Origin: a virus
Lineage: Duplodnaviria > Heunggongvirae > Uroviricota > Caudoviricetes
Direction: 5' to 3' (one strand)
DNA length: 11,914 bases
IMG/VR virus record: IMGVR_UViG_2671180884_000016
Location: 1 to 11,914 of that record
The position numbers and the translations under genes were made by a program. Below the pieces are notes generated by a model, which searched no databases, was not told the DNA's origin, and worked only from the letters and a program-made list of their open reading frames with translations. This document shows, piece by piece, positions 4,935 through 11,914 of the stretch (position 1 is the stretch's first letter; each line of letters opens with the position of its first letter).

Positions 4935-5189
4935 TCACACCTCCCAGTAAACCGTGCAGCCGCTGATGCGGGTGGCCTTCACACGGCGGCGCAGGCCGTT
5001 GGTCTGTATGGTGATTTCAATTTCACCGGTTCCCTGCACGTTGCCTACCGGCGGCGTGGTTTTCAGTGCAAAACGTTGCGGATAGCGCTTACTGCGTTCC
5101 AGTACCGCACCGGCAAGTTCGGTCAGACGGCGCGCGCTGTTCAGGGAGTCGAATAAATTCATTTTGTTACCGCAGGATTGCATATTCAT
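4935..5189 (-). CDS. hypothetical protein, about 84 aa (ORF track 4935-5201; internal ATG at 5189 preferred)
   Basis: The first ATG of the ORF itself forms SD GAGGTG for the ATG at 5187-5189. Confidence 0.4.
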   Translation of the reverse strand: MNMQSCGNKMNLFDSLNSARRLTELAGAVLERSKRYPQRFALKTTPPVGNVQGTGEIEITIQTNGLRRRVKATRISGCTVYWEV

Positions 5190-5201
5190 ATAACACCTCA
5201 T

Positions 5202-5423
5202 TTAGCTGACTTGTTTCGCACCAACAGAACGGCATATTCCGCTGTAAACGTCTGTCGCACCTTCGCGATCAAGTCCGGCAGATATCACCATTCGTGTGCG
5301 GTCATTAAATTCAAAAAGTAAATCGCCACATTCTTTATTTTCGGCCAGTGAAATCACCTTCACGTTATCGAAATTAACCAGGTAAAAGCGTCCGTAAATA
5401 TCAGGAATATTAAATACCGCCAT
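5202..5423 (-). CDS. hypothetical small protein, about 73 aa, immediately downstream of B (position of kil in Mu)
   Basis: ATG at 5421-5423 preceded by SD AGGTG; the ORF track's start at 5429 is a GTG two codons upstream. Follows B stop (TGA 5426-5428) after 2 nt. Confidence 0.45.
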   Translation of the reverse strand: MAVFNIPDIYGRFYLVNFDNVKVISLAENKECGDLLFEFNDRTRMVISAGLDREGATDVYSGICRSVGAKQVS

Positions 5424-5425
5424 AA

Positions 5426-6358
5426 TCACACCTGTGAGAGTAATTCAGGGTTGGTATAAACCTCTTTAAAGGCCGCATTAATATGTTTTTCTGTCAGCGC
5501 CGCGCCTTCACCGCTGGCGGTGAGCCACGCCTGGTTAAGCGTATGTGTCAGAACGCGTAACGCTCCCGGCTTTTCAGCGATAGCCTGCATGACGGCCAGC
5601 TCGGCCTCACCACTGATCCCCCACGCCCTGGCAATGGCCAGCACATCCGCCTTTTTGGCCTTGCGAAGTTGTTTTGTACGGGCAAGACGGCTGAACAGGC
5701 GCGATAAATCATCAAAGGCGCGGCGTCCACCTTTAAACAATCCGCGCGGGTTACCAATAAGCACCATCCCGATCCCCGTGGCGTCCTGAATTGCCCGGAG
5801 TTGCTCCAGACCGTCAATACCAAGATGATCCGCCTCATCCACAATCACCAGTCCACGCGTTCCCATCAGGCGACGGCGGATGGCGCGGGATAATGCCCCT
5901 TTGTTCGCGCGGGTGTAATCAATCCCCAGCGCATCGGCCAGCTCCAGCAGACACTCCGTGACGCTGGAGTGCGCGGGTGACAGGGTGATCATCCAGGTGT
6001 TTGGTTGCTCCTGGCAGTAATTACGGGCAGTGGCCGTTTTACCCACACCCGGTACGCCCACAATAACGTTAATACAGCCCATCAGACGAACCGCCTGAAA
6101 CAGTGCGCGCAGCTCCTGGACTGTCTGCGTTTCCACAAACTGCGGCGGTTCCGGCAGTGCGCTTTGTTTATTCCAGTTCTCATACCAGGAACGCAGGGAA
6201 GCAGCCACAGCAGCGTTATCGCCTTTATATTTTCCCTTACGGAAAGCCGATAATGTGCCGTCGGAAATTCCCGCCTCTCTGGCGATGGCATACTGCGTCA
6301 GTACGCCGCCATCAATAAGTTCATCAATGGTCTTGATTACATCGTTAATATCAGTCAT
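5426..6358 (-). CDS. B: Mu B-like DNA transposition protein (AAA+ ATPase target-DNA activator)
   Basis: 310 aa. N-terminal HTH-like region, Walker A GVPGVGKT, Walker B-like LVIVDEADHL; directly downstream of the transposase as in Mu. SD GAGAGG upstream. Confidence 0.85.
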   Translation of the reverse strand: MTDINDVIKTIDELIDGGVLTQYAIAREAGISDGTLSAFRKGKYKGDNAAVAASLRSWYENWNKQSALPEPPQFVETQTVQELRALFQAVRLMGCINVIVGVPGVGKTATARNYCQEQPNTWMITLSPAHSSVTECLLELADALGIDYTRANKGALSRAIRRRLMGTRGLVIVDEADHLGIDGLEQLRAIQDATGIGMVLIGNPRGLFKGGRRAFDDLSRLFSRLARTKQLRKAKKADVLAIARAWGISGEAELAVMQAIAEKPGALRVLTHTLNQAWLTASGEGAALTEKHINAAFKEVYTNPELLSQV

Positions 6359-6396
6359 ATTATTAACCTCTCATTTGATACCTTGTTTAATCAAAT

Positions 6397-6430
6397 AACC
6401 TGAGTCGCCGCTCGGGTTATTTTTTTATTT
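6397..6430 (+). terminator. hairpin plus T-tract in the A-B intergenic spacer, best formed on the plus (antisense) strand
   Basis: aacctgag / ctcgggtt stem (8 bp, one G-U) with 6-nt loop, followed by atttttttattt on the plus strand. Confidence 0.3.
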
Positions 6431-8538
6431 CAGGCCAGCGGGTCATTTTCTTTTAATTTCGCTTCCAGCAACTGCAATCCCCGCTGGAAATTACGCTCGT
6501 ATTCTTCATCAGGTTCATCGTCAGCGACCGGTTGCTGAACGGTCACCGTATTACCCACAGGGCGGTATATGTTTTCCAGCCAGGGCTCCTGCGGCTTGTG
6601 CTCCAGCACGTTGACAACCTCATCCTCGGCATCACGGATTTTTTCCTCTGCGCGTTTACGCATGCCTTTAAGGCGTTGCTGCTGTTTGTAGTATTCCGCG
6701 CTAACCGGGAAGGCTTCGCGTTTATTACCGTCCCATACCGCCTCGCAAATCACGCTGCCATCCAGGCGACGTACGGTAATTCGTTCGGCATCATGAATGT
6801 CATAGCTGATAAGCACCTTACGACCATGCTCGTCACGCAGCTCGGGCGCGTAGTAAATATTATTCAGCCAGCGTATTTCACAGCGTCTTACAGGGCGTTC
6901 CACCATCGGCCGGAACATATCCCGCAGCTCAACATCGGACAGCCATTCAATTTCCGTGTCCTCTTCCGCCAGGCGTTTTTTTCTGAACTCCGCCGGGCTG
7001 TAATGCTTGCCGTTCGGCTTCACCGGTAATTCATCGTGCGGCCGGTTGTTGTACCACTCAACACCGTCACGAATGGCATCAATCAGTTCAGACCAGGACG
7101 GTAAATCACGCATCGCTGACTGCTGCCGGGCGTTCAGCCGTTTGCCCTGTTGCAGGGCAGTAAATGCCGAGCGTAAATCGCGGTTGGTTTTGCGTAACGT
7201 CTCGCGATCTGCACCTTTCCCGAAATAGGTGCGGTATTTACGGGCTATGCGCATCGGTAATGTGCGGTTAAGCCGTTCGATAATGCCTCGTCCCTGCGGA
7301 TTACCGGCAATCCCGGTCGGGTGATTAATCCCCAGTCGCGGCAGTATCCCCACAACCTCCTTATCCAGGATGTCGGCGGTTTCCCCGGAGCCGTTATCCG
7401 AGTAATACAGAAACGGTTTGCCGTGATGGCGAATGCCGTGCTGTATGGCACCGGCTACGGCGAAAACATTTTCAGCCAGGTCAAGGCTCCAGCCCACCAC
7501 AAAGCGCGTGCCACCGTCGATAACAAAGGTCACTTCCGGTGCAAATGGCCGACCGTGAACCGGGTGTGCGCATTTCAGCTTCATGCCGTGACCGTCACCA
7601 ATCCAGACATAATTCACCGGCATTTTTGACCAGTCGCGGCGCGTGAATCCCTCAAGCTGGCGGTATTCACTGCCGGTCACCCGGCCTTTTTGTTTCACCA
7701 CTTCCGGCAGTTTCTTCATTGCGCGGCGAATGGTGTCATAAGACGGCATGATATCGAGCATATAAGGCTCATCAGCGTGCCGGTGCTGCCATTCAGCGAC
7801 AAAATCCTCGTAAGCCTCGGTCATTGGTCGGCCGTTTGACTGGCGATACTGCGCCAGAAATTCGGGCAGCCAGTTAATATCTTCGGCTTTTATTTCCTGG
7901 CGCTTACCCGGTGCCAGTAAAAGCAGGCGTTCAGCGGCGTTCTGCGCCTTGTTAAAGGCCGCAATCCAGCGTTTCAGCGTTATTTCACTCAACGCACGGC
8001 TGTTTCCCTTTTTGGCGTTCGCCGTCTCAACCATTGCCACAATGCGCTCGTCCAGTTGCGAACGTGCCAGGTTGTCAACGATAAACCGGATAGCTTTCGC
8101 GCAGCTGAAACCGGGTTGTTGCGCGACTTTCATCACTTCGCTGACGATCGCGATTCGTGCATCAGCCACCTGGCGCTGGTTTTCAGTCAGGGCATTGAGG
8201 CGTTCGACCATCAGTTGTGGTGATCCGCGATATGCCTCCACCGCATCAACCACGTCAGATGAGCGTCTGGCCTTTGTCACCACCGGAGCCGGTGATTCAT
8301 CGGCTTTTTGCGTCATCAGTTGCAGGGCATAGCGTTCGCGTACTGCCTGCTGAACAGTTAAAGGCAAAGCTCCTATTTCACACTCTAAAACTTTCCCTTT
8401 TACCCCTGGTTTTAGCCGCGTTTTCCACGCTTCCCTCTTTGCTTTTTTGTGCAGACCTGCCAAAGAACTAGGTAGGTCACTGAATGAAATCAATTCAGTC
8501 ATTGCAACCCACATATTTCCTCCGCGCACGTCGTTCAT
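6430..8538 (-). CDS. A: Mu A-like DDE transposase (N-terminal repressor-like DNA-binding domain, central rve-type catalytic core, C-terminal domain)
   Basis: 702 aa; size and position (after ner, before B) match MuA. N-terminal ...SDLPSSLAGLHKKAKREAWKTR... parallels the adjacent repressor. Start may be the internal ATG at 8514 (MWVAMTEL); either start overlaps the ner 3' end. Confidence 0.9.
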   Translation of the reverse strand: MNDVRGGNMWVAMTELISFSDLPSSLAGLHKKAKREAWKTRLKPGVKGKVLECEIGALPLTVQQAVRERYALQLMTQKADESPAPVVTKARRSSDVVDAVEAYRGSPQLMVERLNALTENQRQVADARIAIVSEVMKVAQQPGFSCAKAIRFIVDNLARSQLDERIVAMVETANAKKGNSRALSEITLKRWIAAFNKAQNAAERLLLLAPGKRQEIKAEDINWLPEFLAQYRQSNGRPMTEAYEDFVAEWQHRHADEPYMLDIMPSYDTIRRAMKKLPEVVKQKGRVTGSEYRQLEGFTRRDWSKMPVNYVWIGDGHGMKLKCAHPVHGRPFAPEVTFVIDGGTRFVVGWSLDLAENVFAVAGAIQHGIRHHGKPFLYYSDNGSGETADILDKEVVGILPRLGINHPTGIAGNPQGRGIIERLNRTLPMRIARKYRTYFGKGADRETLRKTNRDLRSAFTALQQGKRLNARQQSAMRDLPSWSELIDAIRDGVEWYNNRPHDELPVKPNGKHYSPAEFRKKRLAEEDTEIEWLSDVELRDMFRPMVERPVRRCEIRWLNNIYYAPELRDEHGRKVLISYDIHDAERITVRRLDGSVICEAVWDGNKREAFPVSAEYYKQQQRLKGMRKRAEEKIRDAEDEVVNVLEHKPQEPWLENIYRPVGNTVTVQQPVADDEPDEEYERNFQRGLQLLEAKLKENDPLA

Positions 8539-8740
8539 ATCTAGTAGGCCAAATAACCTGTGGCTCTACACCTATAGCCCTAGCAATTATCTTTTCACCT
8601 TTAGGGTAGGGAACTCGCAAAGCATTACCCAAAGTCCTAGGCTGCAAATTATTTTCCCTTGATAAACGTGACAAATTGGTATCGCGTTTTTCTAAGGCTG
8701 CCTTTATATCGGCGGAAGACCAATCTTCAATAAGACTCAC
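8495..8740 (-). CDS. ner: Ner-like DNA-binding transcriptional regulator (Mu Ner / Nlp family)
   Basis: 81 aa, (M)SLIEDWSSADIKAALEKRDTNLSRLSRENNLQPRTLGNALRVPYPKGEKIIARAIGVEPQVIWPTRY matches the conserved Ner/Nlp pattern (DWH.ADI...L...PKGE.IIA.A.G..P..IWPSRY). GTG start with SD AGGGGG 5 nt upstream. Confidence 0.8.
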   Translation of the reverse strand: MSLIEDWSSADIKAALEKRDTNLSRLSRENNLQPRTLGNALRVPYPKGEKIIARAIGVEPQVIWPTRYERRARRKYVGCND

Positions 8741-8824
8741 AATGGCCCCCTGTGTACTTTCTATGGCAAACTTTATTACTCATGTGTGCTACTCTATTGA
8801 GTTACTCACTAGTGTATGTTTGAT

Positions 8825-8853
8825 ATGTTAGATATTAACTTAGTAAATATCAA
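8825..8853 (-). promoter_or_regulatory. candidate early promoter for ner-A-B (minus strand: -35 TTGATA, 17-bp spacer, -10 TAACAT)
   Basis: Hexamers read by eye on the minus strand; about 85 nt upstream of the ner GTG. Confidence 0.25.
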
Positions 8854-8860
8854 CTGGTTA
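8848..8860. promoter_or_regulatory. IHF-like binding site within the operator region
   Basis: tatcaactggtta fits the IHF consensus WATCAANNNNTTR; Mu has an IHF site in its operator region. Confidence 0.35.
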
Positions 8861-8957
8861 ATTTCAAATTTTTAAATTTGCTCTGTATCTATTTGTTTTT
8901 TATTGAGTTATTTTTGAAATAAACCACATAAAAGATATGAACAAAAGTTAATATCAA

Positions 8958-9476
8958 ATGGAGTTTGATATGATCCTTGACCAAGAATGGATCCTTGCCA
9001 GTGACTTGTTGGGGGTTGGAGGTCTTCCTTCATCTCTGGCTGGGCTTCATAAACGAGCAAAAAATGAAGGATGGGAAAAACGTTCGGTAACTACACCTGG
9101 TATCAGAGGGAGAGCATTTGCCTACCGTTTAAGCGACTTACCTGCACATGTTGTTTCCATCATTACAGGTAGTGCAGAAATAAAACACCAGCCCCCTCAA
9201 AAGAACGGTGGCAATAGCGAGTTGCTCGAACTCATCGACACTTTGAGCCAAGAAGAGCAAGAATTAGTTATTTACACCTTGAGAAGGAAAGGGGTAGAAA
9301 AATTGCTGGAATTCTGCAATCAAGAGAATCAAGAGTTGATCGCTTTAACAGGTATTCGACGCCTGGCAGCATTGAGCCTTAATAATTTATCAGATCAAAA
9401 GGTTAGAGAGATTTTCGAGGGAGATGAAACCAAGGATCATCATTTCAATTTAACCCATAAAGAAGCCAAAGCGTAA
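8958..9476 (+). CDS. c: Mu c-type repressor (lysogeny maintenance); likely true start at ATG 8970
   Basis: 172 aa, divergent from ner. N-terminal ...GGLPSSLAGLHKRAKNEGWEKR... matches the transposase N-terminus, the known MuA/Mu-repressor relationship. GGAG SD 6 nt before the ATG at 8970. Confidence 0.75.
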   Translation: MEFDMILDQEWILASDLLGVGGLPSSLAGLHKRAKNEGWEKRSVTTPGIRGRAFAYRLSDLPAHVVSIITGSAEIKHQPPQKNGGNSELLELIDTLSQEEQELVIYTLRRKGVEKLLEFCNQENQELIALTGIRRLAALSLNNLSDQKVREIFEGDETKDHHFNLTHKEAKA

Positions 9477-9599
9477 CCCCATGAAGCCCAGGCCATGCAC
9501 TTAGCGAGCACTTTCAACTTGATTTGTGACCAGATCGATATTGATATAAACTTTTTAGCATAAAAGACATTTTAAGTACTTTTAAAAACGTCCATAAGC

Positions 9600-9775
9600 A
9601 GTATGTGCAGTATCAAATTTGTTGCCGATACCTTAATTTTATACCGGATTTTATTTAATCAGTATCAAAACTAAACAACCTCCAGAATCATCGATCACCT
9701 GTTTTATTTCAGTATCTTACAGGTGATTTCACCTCCTTTCACTAAAACCCTTGTCGGTATCAAATGATTTACCTG
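9600..9775. repeat. prophage left-end region with four GTATC(A/T)-containing repeats at about 50-bp spacing (candidate transposase end-binding sites, attL-like)
   Basis: cagtatcaaatttgttgccgatacc (about 9608), cagtatcaaaactaaacaacc (about 9660), cagtatcttacaggtgatttcacc (about 9710), cggtatcaaatgatttacc (about 9755); AT-rich, non-coding, between the c stop and the junction. Confidence 0.5.
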
Positions 9776-10022
9776 GTTACACTCTGCACTGCCGGGCGAT
9801 ATCCTGCTGTGCTGCTTCGGCGCATCGGTGGCTAATCATGCCGCCATTTACTGCGGCAACGGTGAACTGCTTCACCATCTGCCTGAACAACTGAGTAAAC
9901 GGGAGAGGTATTCCGAAAAATGGCAACGACGAACGCATTCTGTCTGGCGTCACCGCCACTGGCACGCATCTGCCTTCACGGGGATTTACAACGATTTGGC
10001 CGCCGCTTCAGCCTGTATGTGA
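9768..10022 (+). pseudogene. K: 5'-truncated remnant of lambdoid tail assembly protein K (C-terminal about 84 codons only)
   Basis: In-frame translation ...LHSALPGDILLCCFGASVANHAAIYCGNGELLHHLPEQLSKRERYSEKWQRRTHSVWRHRHWHASAFTGIYNDLAAAS matches the lambda K C-terminus as recalled. An in-frame stop at 9765-9767 lies immediately upstream, with no ATG and no N-terminal K coding sequence. Confidence 0.7.
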
Positions 10023-10600
10023 ACACGGCGGCGGAAGCCATCCGCGCCCTGTCGCTGCAGGTGCCGGGATTCCGCCGTCAGATGAACGAAGGCTGGTACC
10101 AGATACGCATTGCCGGTGAGGATACGGCACCGGAGGCGGTGTATGCCCGCCTTCACGAACCACTGGGTGAGGGAACGGTTATCCATATTGTGCCGCGACT
10201 GGCCGGAGCCGGAAAGGGCGGACTACAGATTGTGCTGGGGGCAGCTGCCATTGTGGGGTCTTTCTTCACGGCCGGAGCATCAATGGCGTTATGGGGTTCA
10301 GCCCTGGCAGCCGGTGGTTTTTCTGCCACCACGATGCTGTTTTCACTGGGTGCCAGCATGATACTGGGCGGTGTGGCCCAGATGCTGGCCCCGAAGGCAA
10401 AAACACCGGATTACCGCGCAACGGATAACGGCAGACAGAACACGTATTTTTCCTCACTGGACAACATGATTGCCCAGGGCAACCCGATGCCGGTGCCCTA
10501 CGGTGAAATGCTGGTTGGTTCACGACGTATCTCTCAGGACATCAGCACCCGTGATGAAGGCGGAGACGGAAAGGTGGTGGTTATTGGTCGACAGGGATAA
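9920..10600 (+). CDS. I: lambdoid tail assembly protein I
   Basis: 226 aa, MATTNAFCLASPPLARICLHGDLQRFGRR...GKQNTYFSSLDNM..., closely parallels lambda gpI; overlaps the K 3' end as in lambda-like tail modules. Confidence 0.9.
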   Translation: MATTNAFCLASPPLARICLHGDLQRFGRRFSLYVNTAAEAIRALSLQVPGFRRQMNEGWYQIRIAGEDTAPEAVYARLHEPLGEGTVIHIVPRLAGAGKGGLQIVLGAAAIVGSFFTAGASMALWGSALAAGGFSATTMLFSLGASMILGGVAQMLAPKAKTPDYRATDNGRQNTYFSSLDNMIAQGNPMPVPYGEMLVGSRRISQDISTRDEGGDGKVVVIGRQG

Positions 10601-10603
10601 AAC

Positions 10604-10639
10604 ATAAAAAAATCCCGCAGTGATCGCGGAGCTGCGGGG
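10604..10639 (-). terminator. rho-independent terminator-like hairpin, minus-strand orientation, just downstream of the I stop
   Basis: Stem tcccgcag / ctgcggga (8 bp) with 11-nt loop; on the minus strand the stem is followed by TTTTTTTAT (plus-strand A-run 10606-10612). Confidence 0.4.
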
Positions 10640-10812
10640 ACAGACAAATGAAGATTAATGTTAAGGAGTTGTTTTTGTTACTCGGGCAAAAAAACACTAA
10701 CGCAGCGAAATTATAAGCGCCACAGTCAGTGTGTGAAAATGTGAAGATATTCAGAATTTTTATGCCATTACCGGTTTTAACCAACAGGATTATCGGTGGG
10801 CATGAAAGAAAA

Positions 10813-10845
10813 CCCCGGTATCTGCTGATACCGGGGTTTCTGTTT
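10813..10845. terminator. bidirectional rho-independent terminator-like hairpin in the I-J spacer
   Basis: Perfect 10-bp stem ccccggtatc / gataccgggg with 4-nt loop, flanked by gaaagaaaa upstream and tttctgttt downstream (T-rich on both strands). Confidence 0.5.
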
Positions 10846-10942
10846 AGCATGGCAGAAATGTGTTTCATGCTTTTCGGGCGAAGGATATCCGACTTCTGTA
10901 CGGAATGGCAAGTGGCGGTTAATTTATTCAGGGGAAGGCTGT

Positions 10943-11914
10943 ATGGGAAAAGGTGGCGGTAAGGCACACACGCCTCGTGAGGCGAAGGATAATCTCAAAT
11001 CCACGCAGATGATGAGCGTGATTGATGCGATTGGTGAGGGACCCATTGAAGGTCCGGTGAAAGGCCTGCAGAGTATTCTGGTGAACAAAACCCCGCTGAC
11101 GGACACGGACGGTAATCCCGTGATACACGGTGTGACCGCGGTCTGGCGCGCCGGGGAGCAGGAGCAGACACCACCGGAAGGCTTTGAGTCCTCCGGAGCT
11201 GAAACTGTACTGGGTGTGGAAGTGACGAAGGCAAAACCGGTGACACGCACCATTACGTCAGCGAACATTGACCGCCTGCGGGTGACCTTCGGGGTGCAGT
11301 CACTGGTGGAGACCACGTCAAAGGGTGACCGTAATCCGTCCTCTGTCCGTCTGCTGATTCAGTTACAGCGTAACGGTAACTGGGTGACAGAAAAGGATGT
11401 CACCATTAACGGCAAGACCACCTCACAGTTCCTGGCCTCGGTGATTCTGGATAATCTGCCTCCCCGCCCCTTTAACATCCGGATGGTCAGGGAGACGGCG
11501 GACAGCACCACGGACCAGCTGCAGAACAGAACGCTGTGGTCGTCATACACCGAAATCATCGATGTGAAACAGTGCTACCCGAACACGGCCATTGTGGGGA
11601 TGCAGGTGGATGCGGAGCAGTTTGGTGGTCAGCAGATGACGGTGAACTACCATATCCGCGGTCGCATCATCCAGGTGCCGTCAAACTATGACCCGGAAAA
11701 ACGCACGTACAGTGGTATCTGGGACGGCAGTCTGAAACCGGCATACAGCAACAACCCGGCCTGGTGCCTGTGGGACATGCTGACTCACCCGCGCTACGGG
11801 ATGGGAAAACGCCTGGGGGCGGCGGATGTGGACAAGTGGGCGCTGTATGCCATCGGGCAGTACTGCGACCAGACGGTCCCGGATGGATTCGGGGGCACAG
11901 AGCCGCGGATGACC
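10943..11914 (+). CDS. J: lambdoid host specificity / central tail fibre protein J, N-terminal 324 aa; continues beyond window end
   Basis: Translation MGKGGGKAHTPREAKDNLKSTQMMSVIDAIGEGPIEGPVKGLQSILVNKTPL...PPRPFNIRM...LWSSYTEIIDVKQCYPNTAIVG...SNNPAWCLWDMLTHPRYGMGKRLGAADVDKWALY... is near-collinear with lambda gpJ; SD GGGGAAGG upstream; open to the window edge. Confidence 0.95.
   Translation, partial: MGKGGGKAHTPREAKDNLKSTQMMSVIDAIGEGPIEGPVKGLQSILVNKTPLTDTDGNPVIHGVTAVWRAGEQEQTPPEGFESSGAETVLGVEVTKAKPVTRTITSANIDRLRVTFGVQSLVETTSKGDRNPSSVRLLIQLQRNGNWVTEKDVTINGKTTSQFLASVILDNLPPRPFNIRMVRETADSTTDQLQNRTLWSSYTEIIDVKQCYPNTAIVGMQVDAEQFGGQQMTVNYHIRGRIIQVPSNYDPEKRTYSGIWDGSLKPAYSNNPAWCLWDMLTHPRYGMGKRLGAADVDKWALYAIGQYCDQTVPDGFGGTEPRMT

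Follow-up and report, generated by a model that had tools for sequence, protein, structure and literature searches.

Genes flanking the control region

The analyzed stretch of DNA (11,914 nt, referred to here as the window) carries a Mu-like prophage over its first 9.8 kb, which are the left part of the element, with the early operon on the minus strand. The control region is located between a c-type immunity repressor gene on the plus strand (8970..9476, 168 aa; PF02316, E=1.5e-6) and a ner-type gene on the minus strand (8495..8740, 81 aa; PF13693 HTH_35, E=6.7e-27), which begins with a GTG start codon after AGGGGG. The ner product has an identity of 53% with Mu Ner and of 56% with D108 Ner. 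The minus strand further encodes a Mu-type transposase, A (6430-8514; Pfam Mu-transpos_C), and a MuB-type ATPase, B (5426-6358; Pfam Phage-MuB_C). These Pfam matches, together with the gene order and the strands, confirm that the region separates c from a divergent ner-A-B early operon, as proposed for a Mu-like prophage in a preliminary description of this DNA.

The N-terminal domain of the c protein is a winged helix of the Mu repressor type, and the C-terminal domain is separate from it. Solved structures that match c residues 7-59 are the DNA-binding domain of the Mu repressor (1G4D/1QPM, E=4e-5) and MuA I-alpha (1TNS). The more likely start of c is the ATG at 8970, which is preceded by GGAG at 8960-8963 and agrees with the start codon that RefSeq (PGAP) annotates in two relatives, once transferred to the window. 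With this start codon, the gap between ner and c measures 229 bp rather than 217 bp. The 217-bp spacer considered previously (8741-8957) was rightly described as AT-rich, with a G+C content of 26.7% compared to 49.7% for the window. At the start of the c coding sequence (8972-8997), GATCCTTG is found twice, 18 nt apart, with a GATC in each copy. An Rfam search of 8400-9800 returned no credible match.

Prophage context and left end

The backbone of the element is that of Sp18 (O157 Sakai) and of Mu-like phages found inserted in Stx phages. Sp18-type phages have been described as transposable Mu-like prophages that occupy variable sites (PMC7430833, PMC10132054). A megablast search of 5426 complete E. 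coli genomes found the c-ner region almost complete in 13, among which the immunity module occupies at least 10 different insertion sites. The matches in these 13 genomes stop at window positions 9781-9787 and are flanked by differing host genes; the element thus transposes, and its left end is located at 9781. The shared left end is carried by 234 of the 5426 complete E. coli genomes; beyond the 13, about 220 genomes have only the last ~90-100 bp of the end in common.

The terminus of the left end (attL, 9600..9781, minus strand) reads 5'-TGTAACCAGG from 9781 on the minus strand, as taken directly from the sequence. attL contains three copies of TTTGATAC(C/T)G and one copy of AAGATACTG, which are taken to be end-binding sites of the transposase. 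Measured from 9781, the 229-bp gap lies at a distance of 812-1040 bp, so that the Mu-like distance from the left end noted earlier (about 820-1030 bp) holds.

The heptamer TTTGATA is found in attL at 9611, 9663 and 9758. Six of its seven copies in the window are located in the control region and the left end, compared to 1.9 expected; the sole other copy (6374-6380) lies in the short intergenic gap between A and B. A shared specificity of the operator motif and the left-end sites, both of which contain TTTGATA, was considered and rejected, as relatives with the same operator motif carry TATCTTGAAT or TCCCTAA end sites. Among the relatives compared over the region downstream of c that corresponds to 9600-9781 (L001 and L004-L011), the types of left-end repeat (GGTATCAAAT, TATCTTGAAT, TCCCTAA and others) assort independently of the immunity module. 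This assortment indicates a mosaic exchange between putative end-binding and operator-binding specificities.

Beyond the left end, the window (9782-11914) encodes a homolog of the lambda tail assembly protein I (Lambda_tail_I, 9920-10600). The Mu-like prophage therefore sits inside a lambdoid prophage. Such an insertion fits reports of these phages landing in other mobile elements (PMC10132054).

Proposed operator motif and its two clusters

The control region was compared with those of nine other loci, which encode repressors with 37-68% identity to the c protein described here. They stem from E. coli RM9088, Shigella sonnei, several Salmonella and two more distant contigs. This comparison with related prophages, which had been suggested as a check of the preliminary description, yields an alignment of conserved islands on a poorly conserved background. 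The islands are copies of a 12-bp motif, GTTAATATCAAA. Six good copies and a weak one are arranged in two clusters (8828-8868 and 8913-8975). When up to two mismatches are allowed, the motif is found nine times in the window, with six of these matches in 8828-8975. The operator-type repeated sites postulated for the region are thus borne out by a motif family that had been seen in part before.

Cluster I (8828..8868), the analog of Mu O2, contains S1 (8828-8839, minus strand), S2 (8843-8854, plus strand) and S3 (8857-8868, plus strand), with matrix scores of 18.3-20.7 bits. S1 and S2 together form a 27-bp palindrome. The block 8828-8870 is identical in RM9088, though the region as a whole is only about 71% identical. 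Cluster II (8913..8975), the analog of Mu O1, is composed of S4 (8913-8924, minus strand, 18.9 bits), the weak site S5 (8931-8942, minus strand, 9.5 bits), S6 (8947-8958, plus strand, 22.9 bits) and S7 (8964-8975, minus strand, 13.6 bits, matrix window 8962-8977). S6 and S7 bracket the ribosome-binding site of c, and S7 covers its start codon. In cluster II as in cluster I, the sites are syntenic in the relatives, and operator sites are found at syntenic positions in all nine of them.

The clusters are separated by an AT-rich spacer (8869..8912) that is poorly conserved in the alignment of relatives. The spacer measures 44 nt in eight comparators (E. coli, Shigella, Salmonella and L008) and 33-34 nt, i.e. 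one helical turn less, in the two most distant relatives. It accounts for nine of the 13 differences from a relative that is 97.8% identical.

For a search of the window, a weight matrix was trained on the nine relatives with the window left out. Of its six best hits in the window (11.9 kb), five are located inside 8826-8960, at 18.3-22.9 bits (8945-8960, 8855-8870, 8841-8856, 8911-8926 and 8826-8841). The best match outside the immunity module reaches 12.0 bits. Seven matches of at least 8 bits are found in the region, compared to 1.1 in shuffled sequences. The sixth of the top hits is an isolated operator-type site, AAGTTTATATCAATAT (9538..9553, minus strand, 18.2 bits), located 62 nt past the c stop codon within the variable immunity module; among the relatives, only the near-identical L002 (97.8%) has this site.

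Substitutions avoid the operator sites. RM9088 differs from the window at 66 of 229 nt, with four differences in the 60 nt of S1-S4 and S6 compared to 17.3 expected (P=2.7e-5). Similarly, none of the 13 differences from STEC299 falls within these 60 nt. Based on homology and motif arrangement, the operators are inferred to be bound by the winged-helix N-terminal domain of the repressor.

The strings quoted in the preliminary description are all present, at or within one base of the positions assigned to them, and one of the three repeats named there belongs to the operator motif. This is the inverted pair AGTTAATATC, found at 8946 and as its reverse complement at 8831, which corresponds to S6 and S1. 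The TTACTCA pair (8776 and 8802) is genuine as well, but represents half-sites of a Ner-type palindrome rather than repressor operators. The direct repeat TATTGAGTTA is present at 8795 and 8901; a functional role was rejected and its occurrence is probably due to chance, because the second of the two copies differs in the relative with 97.8% identity and is missing from one with 74%. Dinucleotide-shuffled versions of the region contain an exact direct repeat of at least 10 nt in 8.4% of cases and an exact inverted repeat of 10 nt in 39%.

Predicted early promoter and Ner-type palindrome

A predicted early promoter, Pe, is directed toward ner-A-B (8825..8853, minus strand). It is composed of a -35 element TTGATA (8853-8848), a 17-nt spacer and a -10 element TAACAT (8830-8825), with a predicted start near 8818, and lies wholly within cluster I. 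Pe is the sole sigma-70-like match in 8600-9100, and its hexamers with the 17-nt spacing are located in the same alignment column in all 10 phages. On the plus strand, no convincing, positionally conserved sigma-70 candidate for a c promoter was found among the phages compared. E. coli and Salmonella relatives have different candidates, and the versions in the window are without the final T of the -10 element.

A predicted Ner-type operator is located immediately downstream of Pe and upstream of ner (8775..8809, minus strand), where it covers about +10 to +44 relative to the Pe start predicted above. Read toward ner, the element is composed of a palindrome with an 8-bp AT-rich spacer, GTGAGTAAC-N8-GTAGCACAC (8809-8784; N8 = TCAATAGA), and a directly adjoining third half-site, ATGAGTAAT (8783-8775). 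The element is conserved in all relatives. In D108, a perfect palindrome, CCGTGAGCTAC-N8-GTAGCTCACGG (N8 = TTTATAGC; D108 996-1025, L014), which we take to be the Ner operator, occupies the same place between Pe and ner. The two palindromes share 20 of 30 positions, and the layout of the window is of the D108 type.

Closer to ner, the 5' untranslated region contains a conserved block, CTTTCTATGGCAAACT (8757..8772), which is located shortly before the ribosome-binding site of ner. It is near-invariant in all 10 phages and has variable flanks. Possibilities for this block are a second Ner site or a part of the c promoter. A sigma-54 promoter at TGGCAAAC (8764) was considered and rejected by inspection, as the spacing does not fit the -24/-12 consensus.

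Candidate IHF sites

A match to the IHF consensus alone is weak evidence for an IHF site: by chance, an exact match occurs in 37% of shuffles of the whole window and in 4.2% of shuffles of the region. The site proposed in the preliminary description, TATCAACTGGTTA (8848..8860, plus strand), does match exactly, and WATCAANNNNTTR is matched exactly nowhere else in the window. It is, however, not located between the operator clusters but inside cluster I, where it overlaps the predicted -35 element of Pe, and it is centered near -36 and reads from ner to c, opposite to the orientation in Mu. The sequence is built from the ATCAA at the 3' end of S2 and the GTTA at the 5' end of S3, so that a pair of operator repeats at a distance of 14 bp can account for the match. 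The match is exact only in the window, in RM9088 and in the S. sonnei locus. The seven other relatives have at least one mismatch, with exactly one in six of them and two, as read from the alignment, in L008.

A second IHF-like site is found in the inter-cluster spacer (8886..8898, minus strand). Its plus strand reads TATCTATTTGTTT compared to YAANNNNTTGATW, with two mismatches. In the relatives, the number of mismatches at this site is zero or one in seven and two, as read from the alignment, in two, and the site is always 29 nt away from S3. The conserved columns of the spacer, namely A8887, T8894 and G8895 (all invariant) and T8893 (90%), coincide with specified positions of the consensus. 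The center of the site is located at about -74 from the predicted Pe start, in c-to-ner orientation. The IHF sites of Mu (947-959, exact) and D108 (911-923, one mismatch) are found at about -75 in the same orientation. The spacer site is therefore preferred over 8848-8860 as the candidate Mu-type IHF site, in view of its better position and orientation, despite the weaker fit to the consensus. Judged by the Salmonella relatives, the invariant TTG of the spacer site could instead represent the -35 element of a c promoter.

Exchange of the immunity module and a putative enhancer

In Mu, the transposition enhancer overlaps O1-O3, with an IHF site between two clusters, at about 1 kb from the left end (PMC3145075). 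The operator clusters described here are located 806-953 bp from the left end, and the Mu control region is found at 930-1098. A double role of the region as enhancer, as suggested previously, receives strong comparative support from the relationship between c and A and from the joint swap of the first 54 codons of A with the operators. Residues 7-61 of c and residues 2-54 of A are 42% identical (E=3e-12) and share the near-identical stretch LPSSLAGLHK(R/K)AK. Within-phage identities of the corresponding N-termini amount to 41% in Mu and 55% in D108. The N-terminus of A also matches MuA I-alpha (1TNS, E=2e-6; 1TNT) and 1G4D. Codons 1-54 of A (8353..8514, minus strand) thus encode an I-alpha-like domain, predicted to bind the enhancer/operator, that is a paralog of the repressor N-terminus.

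The heteroimmune sibling Mu_JNE122137 (LC727895) is 96.8% identical to the window over 5179-8352, unrelated over 8353-9693 and 96.7% identical again from 9694. The break in homology at 8352/8353 corresponds to codon 54 of A. Compared to Mu_JNE122137, A is 27.8% identical over residues 1-54 and 99% over residues 55-340. The swapped block (8353-9693) comprises the first 54 codons of A, ner, the operators, c and 217 bp downstream of c. In relatives with the same operator motif, residues 1-54 of A are 65-72% identical, whatever their type of end site. Based on this co-swap of 54 codons and the identity across end types, the N-terminus of A goes with the operators rather than with the ends, as would be expected if it binds the operators in the manner of Mu. 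Judged from these comparisons, the clusters most likely double as transposition enhancer.

The repressor of Mu_JNE122137 (L003 1369-2338) has an N-terminus that is not PF02316 and shows a sub-threshold HTH_3 match only. This N-terminus has no similarity to that of its own transposase, which is PF02316. The C-terminal part of the Mu_JNE122137 repressor is 42% identical to c residues 84-154. With an unrelated N-terminus and a shared C-terminus, the repressor is modular, and the paralogy of repressor and transposase is not universal in this phage group. An identity of operator and enhancer is thus not obligatory in the group either.

Model of the immunity switch and alternative explanations

The genes, the motif copies and their conservation, the c/A paralogy and the module boundary can be read directly from the DNA; the functional steps of the model are inferred from homology and motif layout. 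The gap is likely to be the immunity switch of an Sp18-type Mu-like prophage, organized as in Mu and D108, with the operator clusters also serving as enhancer. The repressor would bind the GTTAATATCAAA copies in both clusters via its winged-helix N-terminal domain. On cluster I, it would cover the -10 element, the spacer and the -35 element of Pe and thereby switch off ner, A and B, and on cluster II it would cover the ribosome-binding site and the start codon of c, resulting in autoregulation. The 44-nt spacer is probably bent, which would allow the clusters to cooperate, and IHF bound at 8886-8898 would be the likeliest source of the bend. Upon induction, Pe would transcribe ner-A-B, and Ner would bind the palindrome 8784-8809 and damp both Pe and the expression of c. 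Residues 1-54 of A would use both clusters as enhancer (internal activation sequence), which would help the ends to synapse. Repressor and transposase would accordingly compete for the clusters.

A reading of the repeats as chance features of intergenic DNA with 27% G+C, without specific protein sites, is barely credible. It draws on the repeats named in the preliminary description, which are individually not significant and one of which is not conserved. Yet the matrix built from relatives only recovers the operator sites at more than 6 bits above the best match outside the immunity module and substitutions avoid them, which already refutes this reading; the sites are, moreover, syntenic across repressors that are 37-68% identical. 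It is also quite improbable that the region acts as operator and promoter only, with an N-terminal domain of A that binds elsewhere or is dispensable and with no use as enhancer. The sibling with its unrelated repressor and transposase N-termini speaks for such a limited role, as the two sets of sites need not coincide in Sp18-like phages. The window itself points the other way: codons 1-54 of A swap as a block with ner, the operators and c, this part of A tracks the operator motif and not the type of end site, and the stretch common to c and A argues for a common DNA target.

The role of IHF bears on two further readings. It is doubtful that 8848-8860 is a functional IHF site that lies on the Pe -35 element between S1/S2 and S3 and serves as co-repressor site or as competitor, not as a Mu-type upstream activator. 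The match is the only exact one in the window, is found in a small fraction of region shuffles, is identical in RM9088 and S. sonnei, and resembles the Mu site beyond the consensus, with TATCAAC..GTTAAT in both. The same match, however, arises automatically from the spacing of two operator repeats, is inexact in all seven other relatives, overlaps the -35 element, is oriented opposite to the sites of Mu and D108 and is centered near -36 instead of -75. Also unlikely, though compatible with the sibling phage, is a more general scheme in which the enhancer-binding domain of A would be part of an exchangeable immunity cassette, at least one such cassette combines a Mu-type N-terminus of A with a repressor that has an unrelated DNA-binding domain, operator and enhancer can accordingly be uncoupled, and IHF, through the exact consensus on the Pe -35 element between operator repeats of the window, would be a co-repressor or switch component rather than a Mu-type upstream activator. 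The Mu/D108-like switch with a double role of the clusters and a spacer IHF site thus remains the preferred reading.

The operator sequence is new; it introduces no new principle, and the present understanding of how such switches work is unchanged. The analysis provides a concrete, predicted map of the switch, with operators, early promoter, Ner site, two IHF candidates and enhancer, for a family of Mu-like prophages that moves around the genomes of Shiga-toxin-producing E. coli and inserts into Stx phages. In addition, a result known from the comparison of Mu and D108 is repeated in an independent lineage, namely that the first ~54 residues of A travel with the immunity region. This co-travel supports the generality of a competition between repressor and transposase at a shared operator-enhancer.

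Comparison with Sp18-like phages, D108 and Mu

Among the Sp18-like and Stx-inserted Mu-like phages, Mu_JNE122137 is an example with a transposase that is 93% identical overall and a left end that is 96.7% identical over 92 bp; the immunity module (8353-9693) is unrelated between the two phages.

D108 resembles the window in its short repressor (174 aa compared to 168 aa) and in the palindromic Ner operator of the GTGAG(C/T)(T/A)AC-N8 type immediately downstream of Pe. The form of Pe, TTGAT(T/A)-17-TA(C/A)(A/C)(T/A)T, and an IHF-like site at about -75 are also shared. The identity to D108 amounts to 27% for the repressor and 56% for Ner, and the repressor motif differs. The third Ner half-site and the conserved block 8757-8772 are found here but not in D108.

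The distance to Mu is larger at the sequence level than in the arrangement of the region. The identity to the Mu counterparts amounts to 32% for the N-terminal domain of the repressor (53 residues) and to 21-32% for the aligned segments of the transposase. The operator motif is GTTAATATCAAA, compared to the CTTTT(C/T)AGTAA repeats visible in Mu O1/O2. Unlike in Mu, neither an O3 equivalent nor a c promoter is placed here, and the spacer IHF-like site deviates at two positions from the consensus that the Mu site matches exactly. In both phages, c and ner-A-B are divergent and the N-terminal domains of repressor and transposase are paralogous. The control region is located about 0.8-1.0 kb from the left end, and its AT-rich spacer carries an IHF-type site (here a candidate) that is located at about -75 from the Pe start and is oriented alike. 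Similarly, two clusters of repressor sites are found at the early promoter and at the c start, with Pe in O2 and with O1 at the ribosome-binding site and start of c in Mu, and the same arrangement is present in the window.
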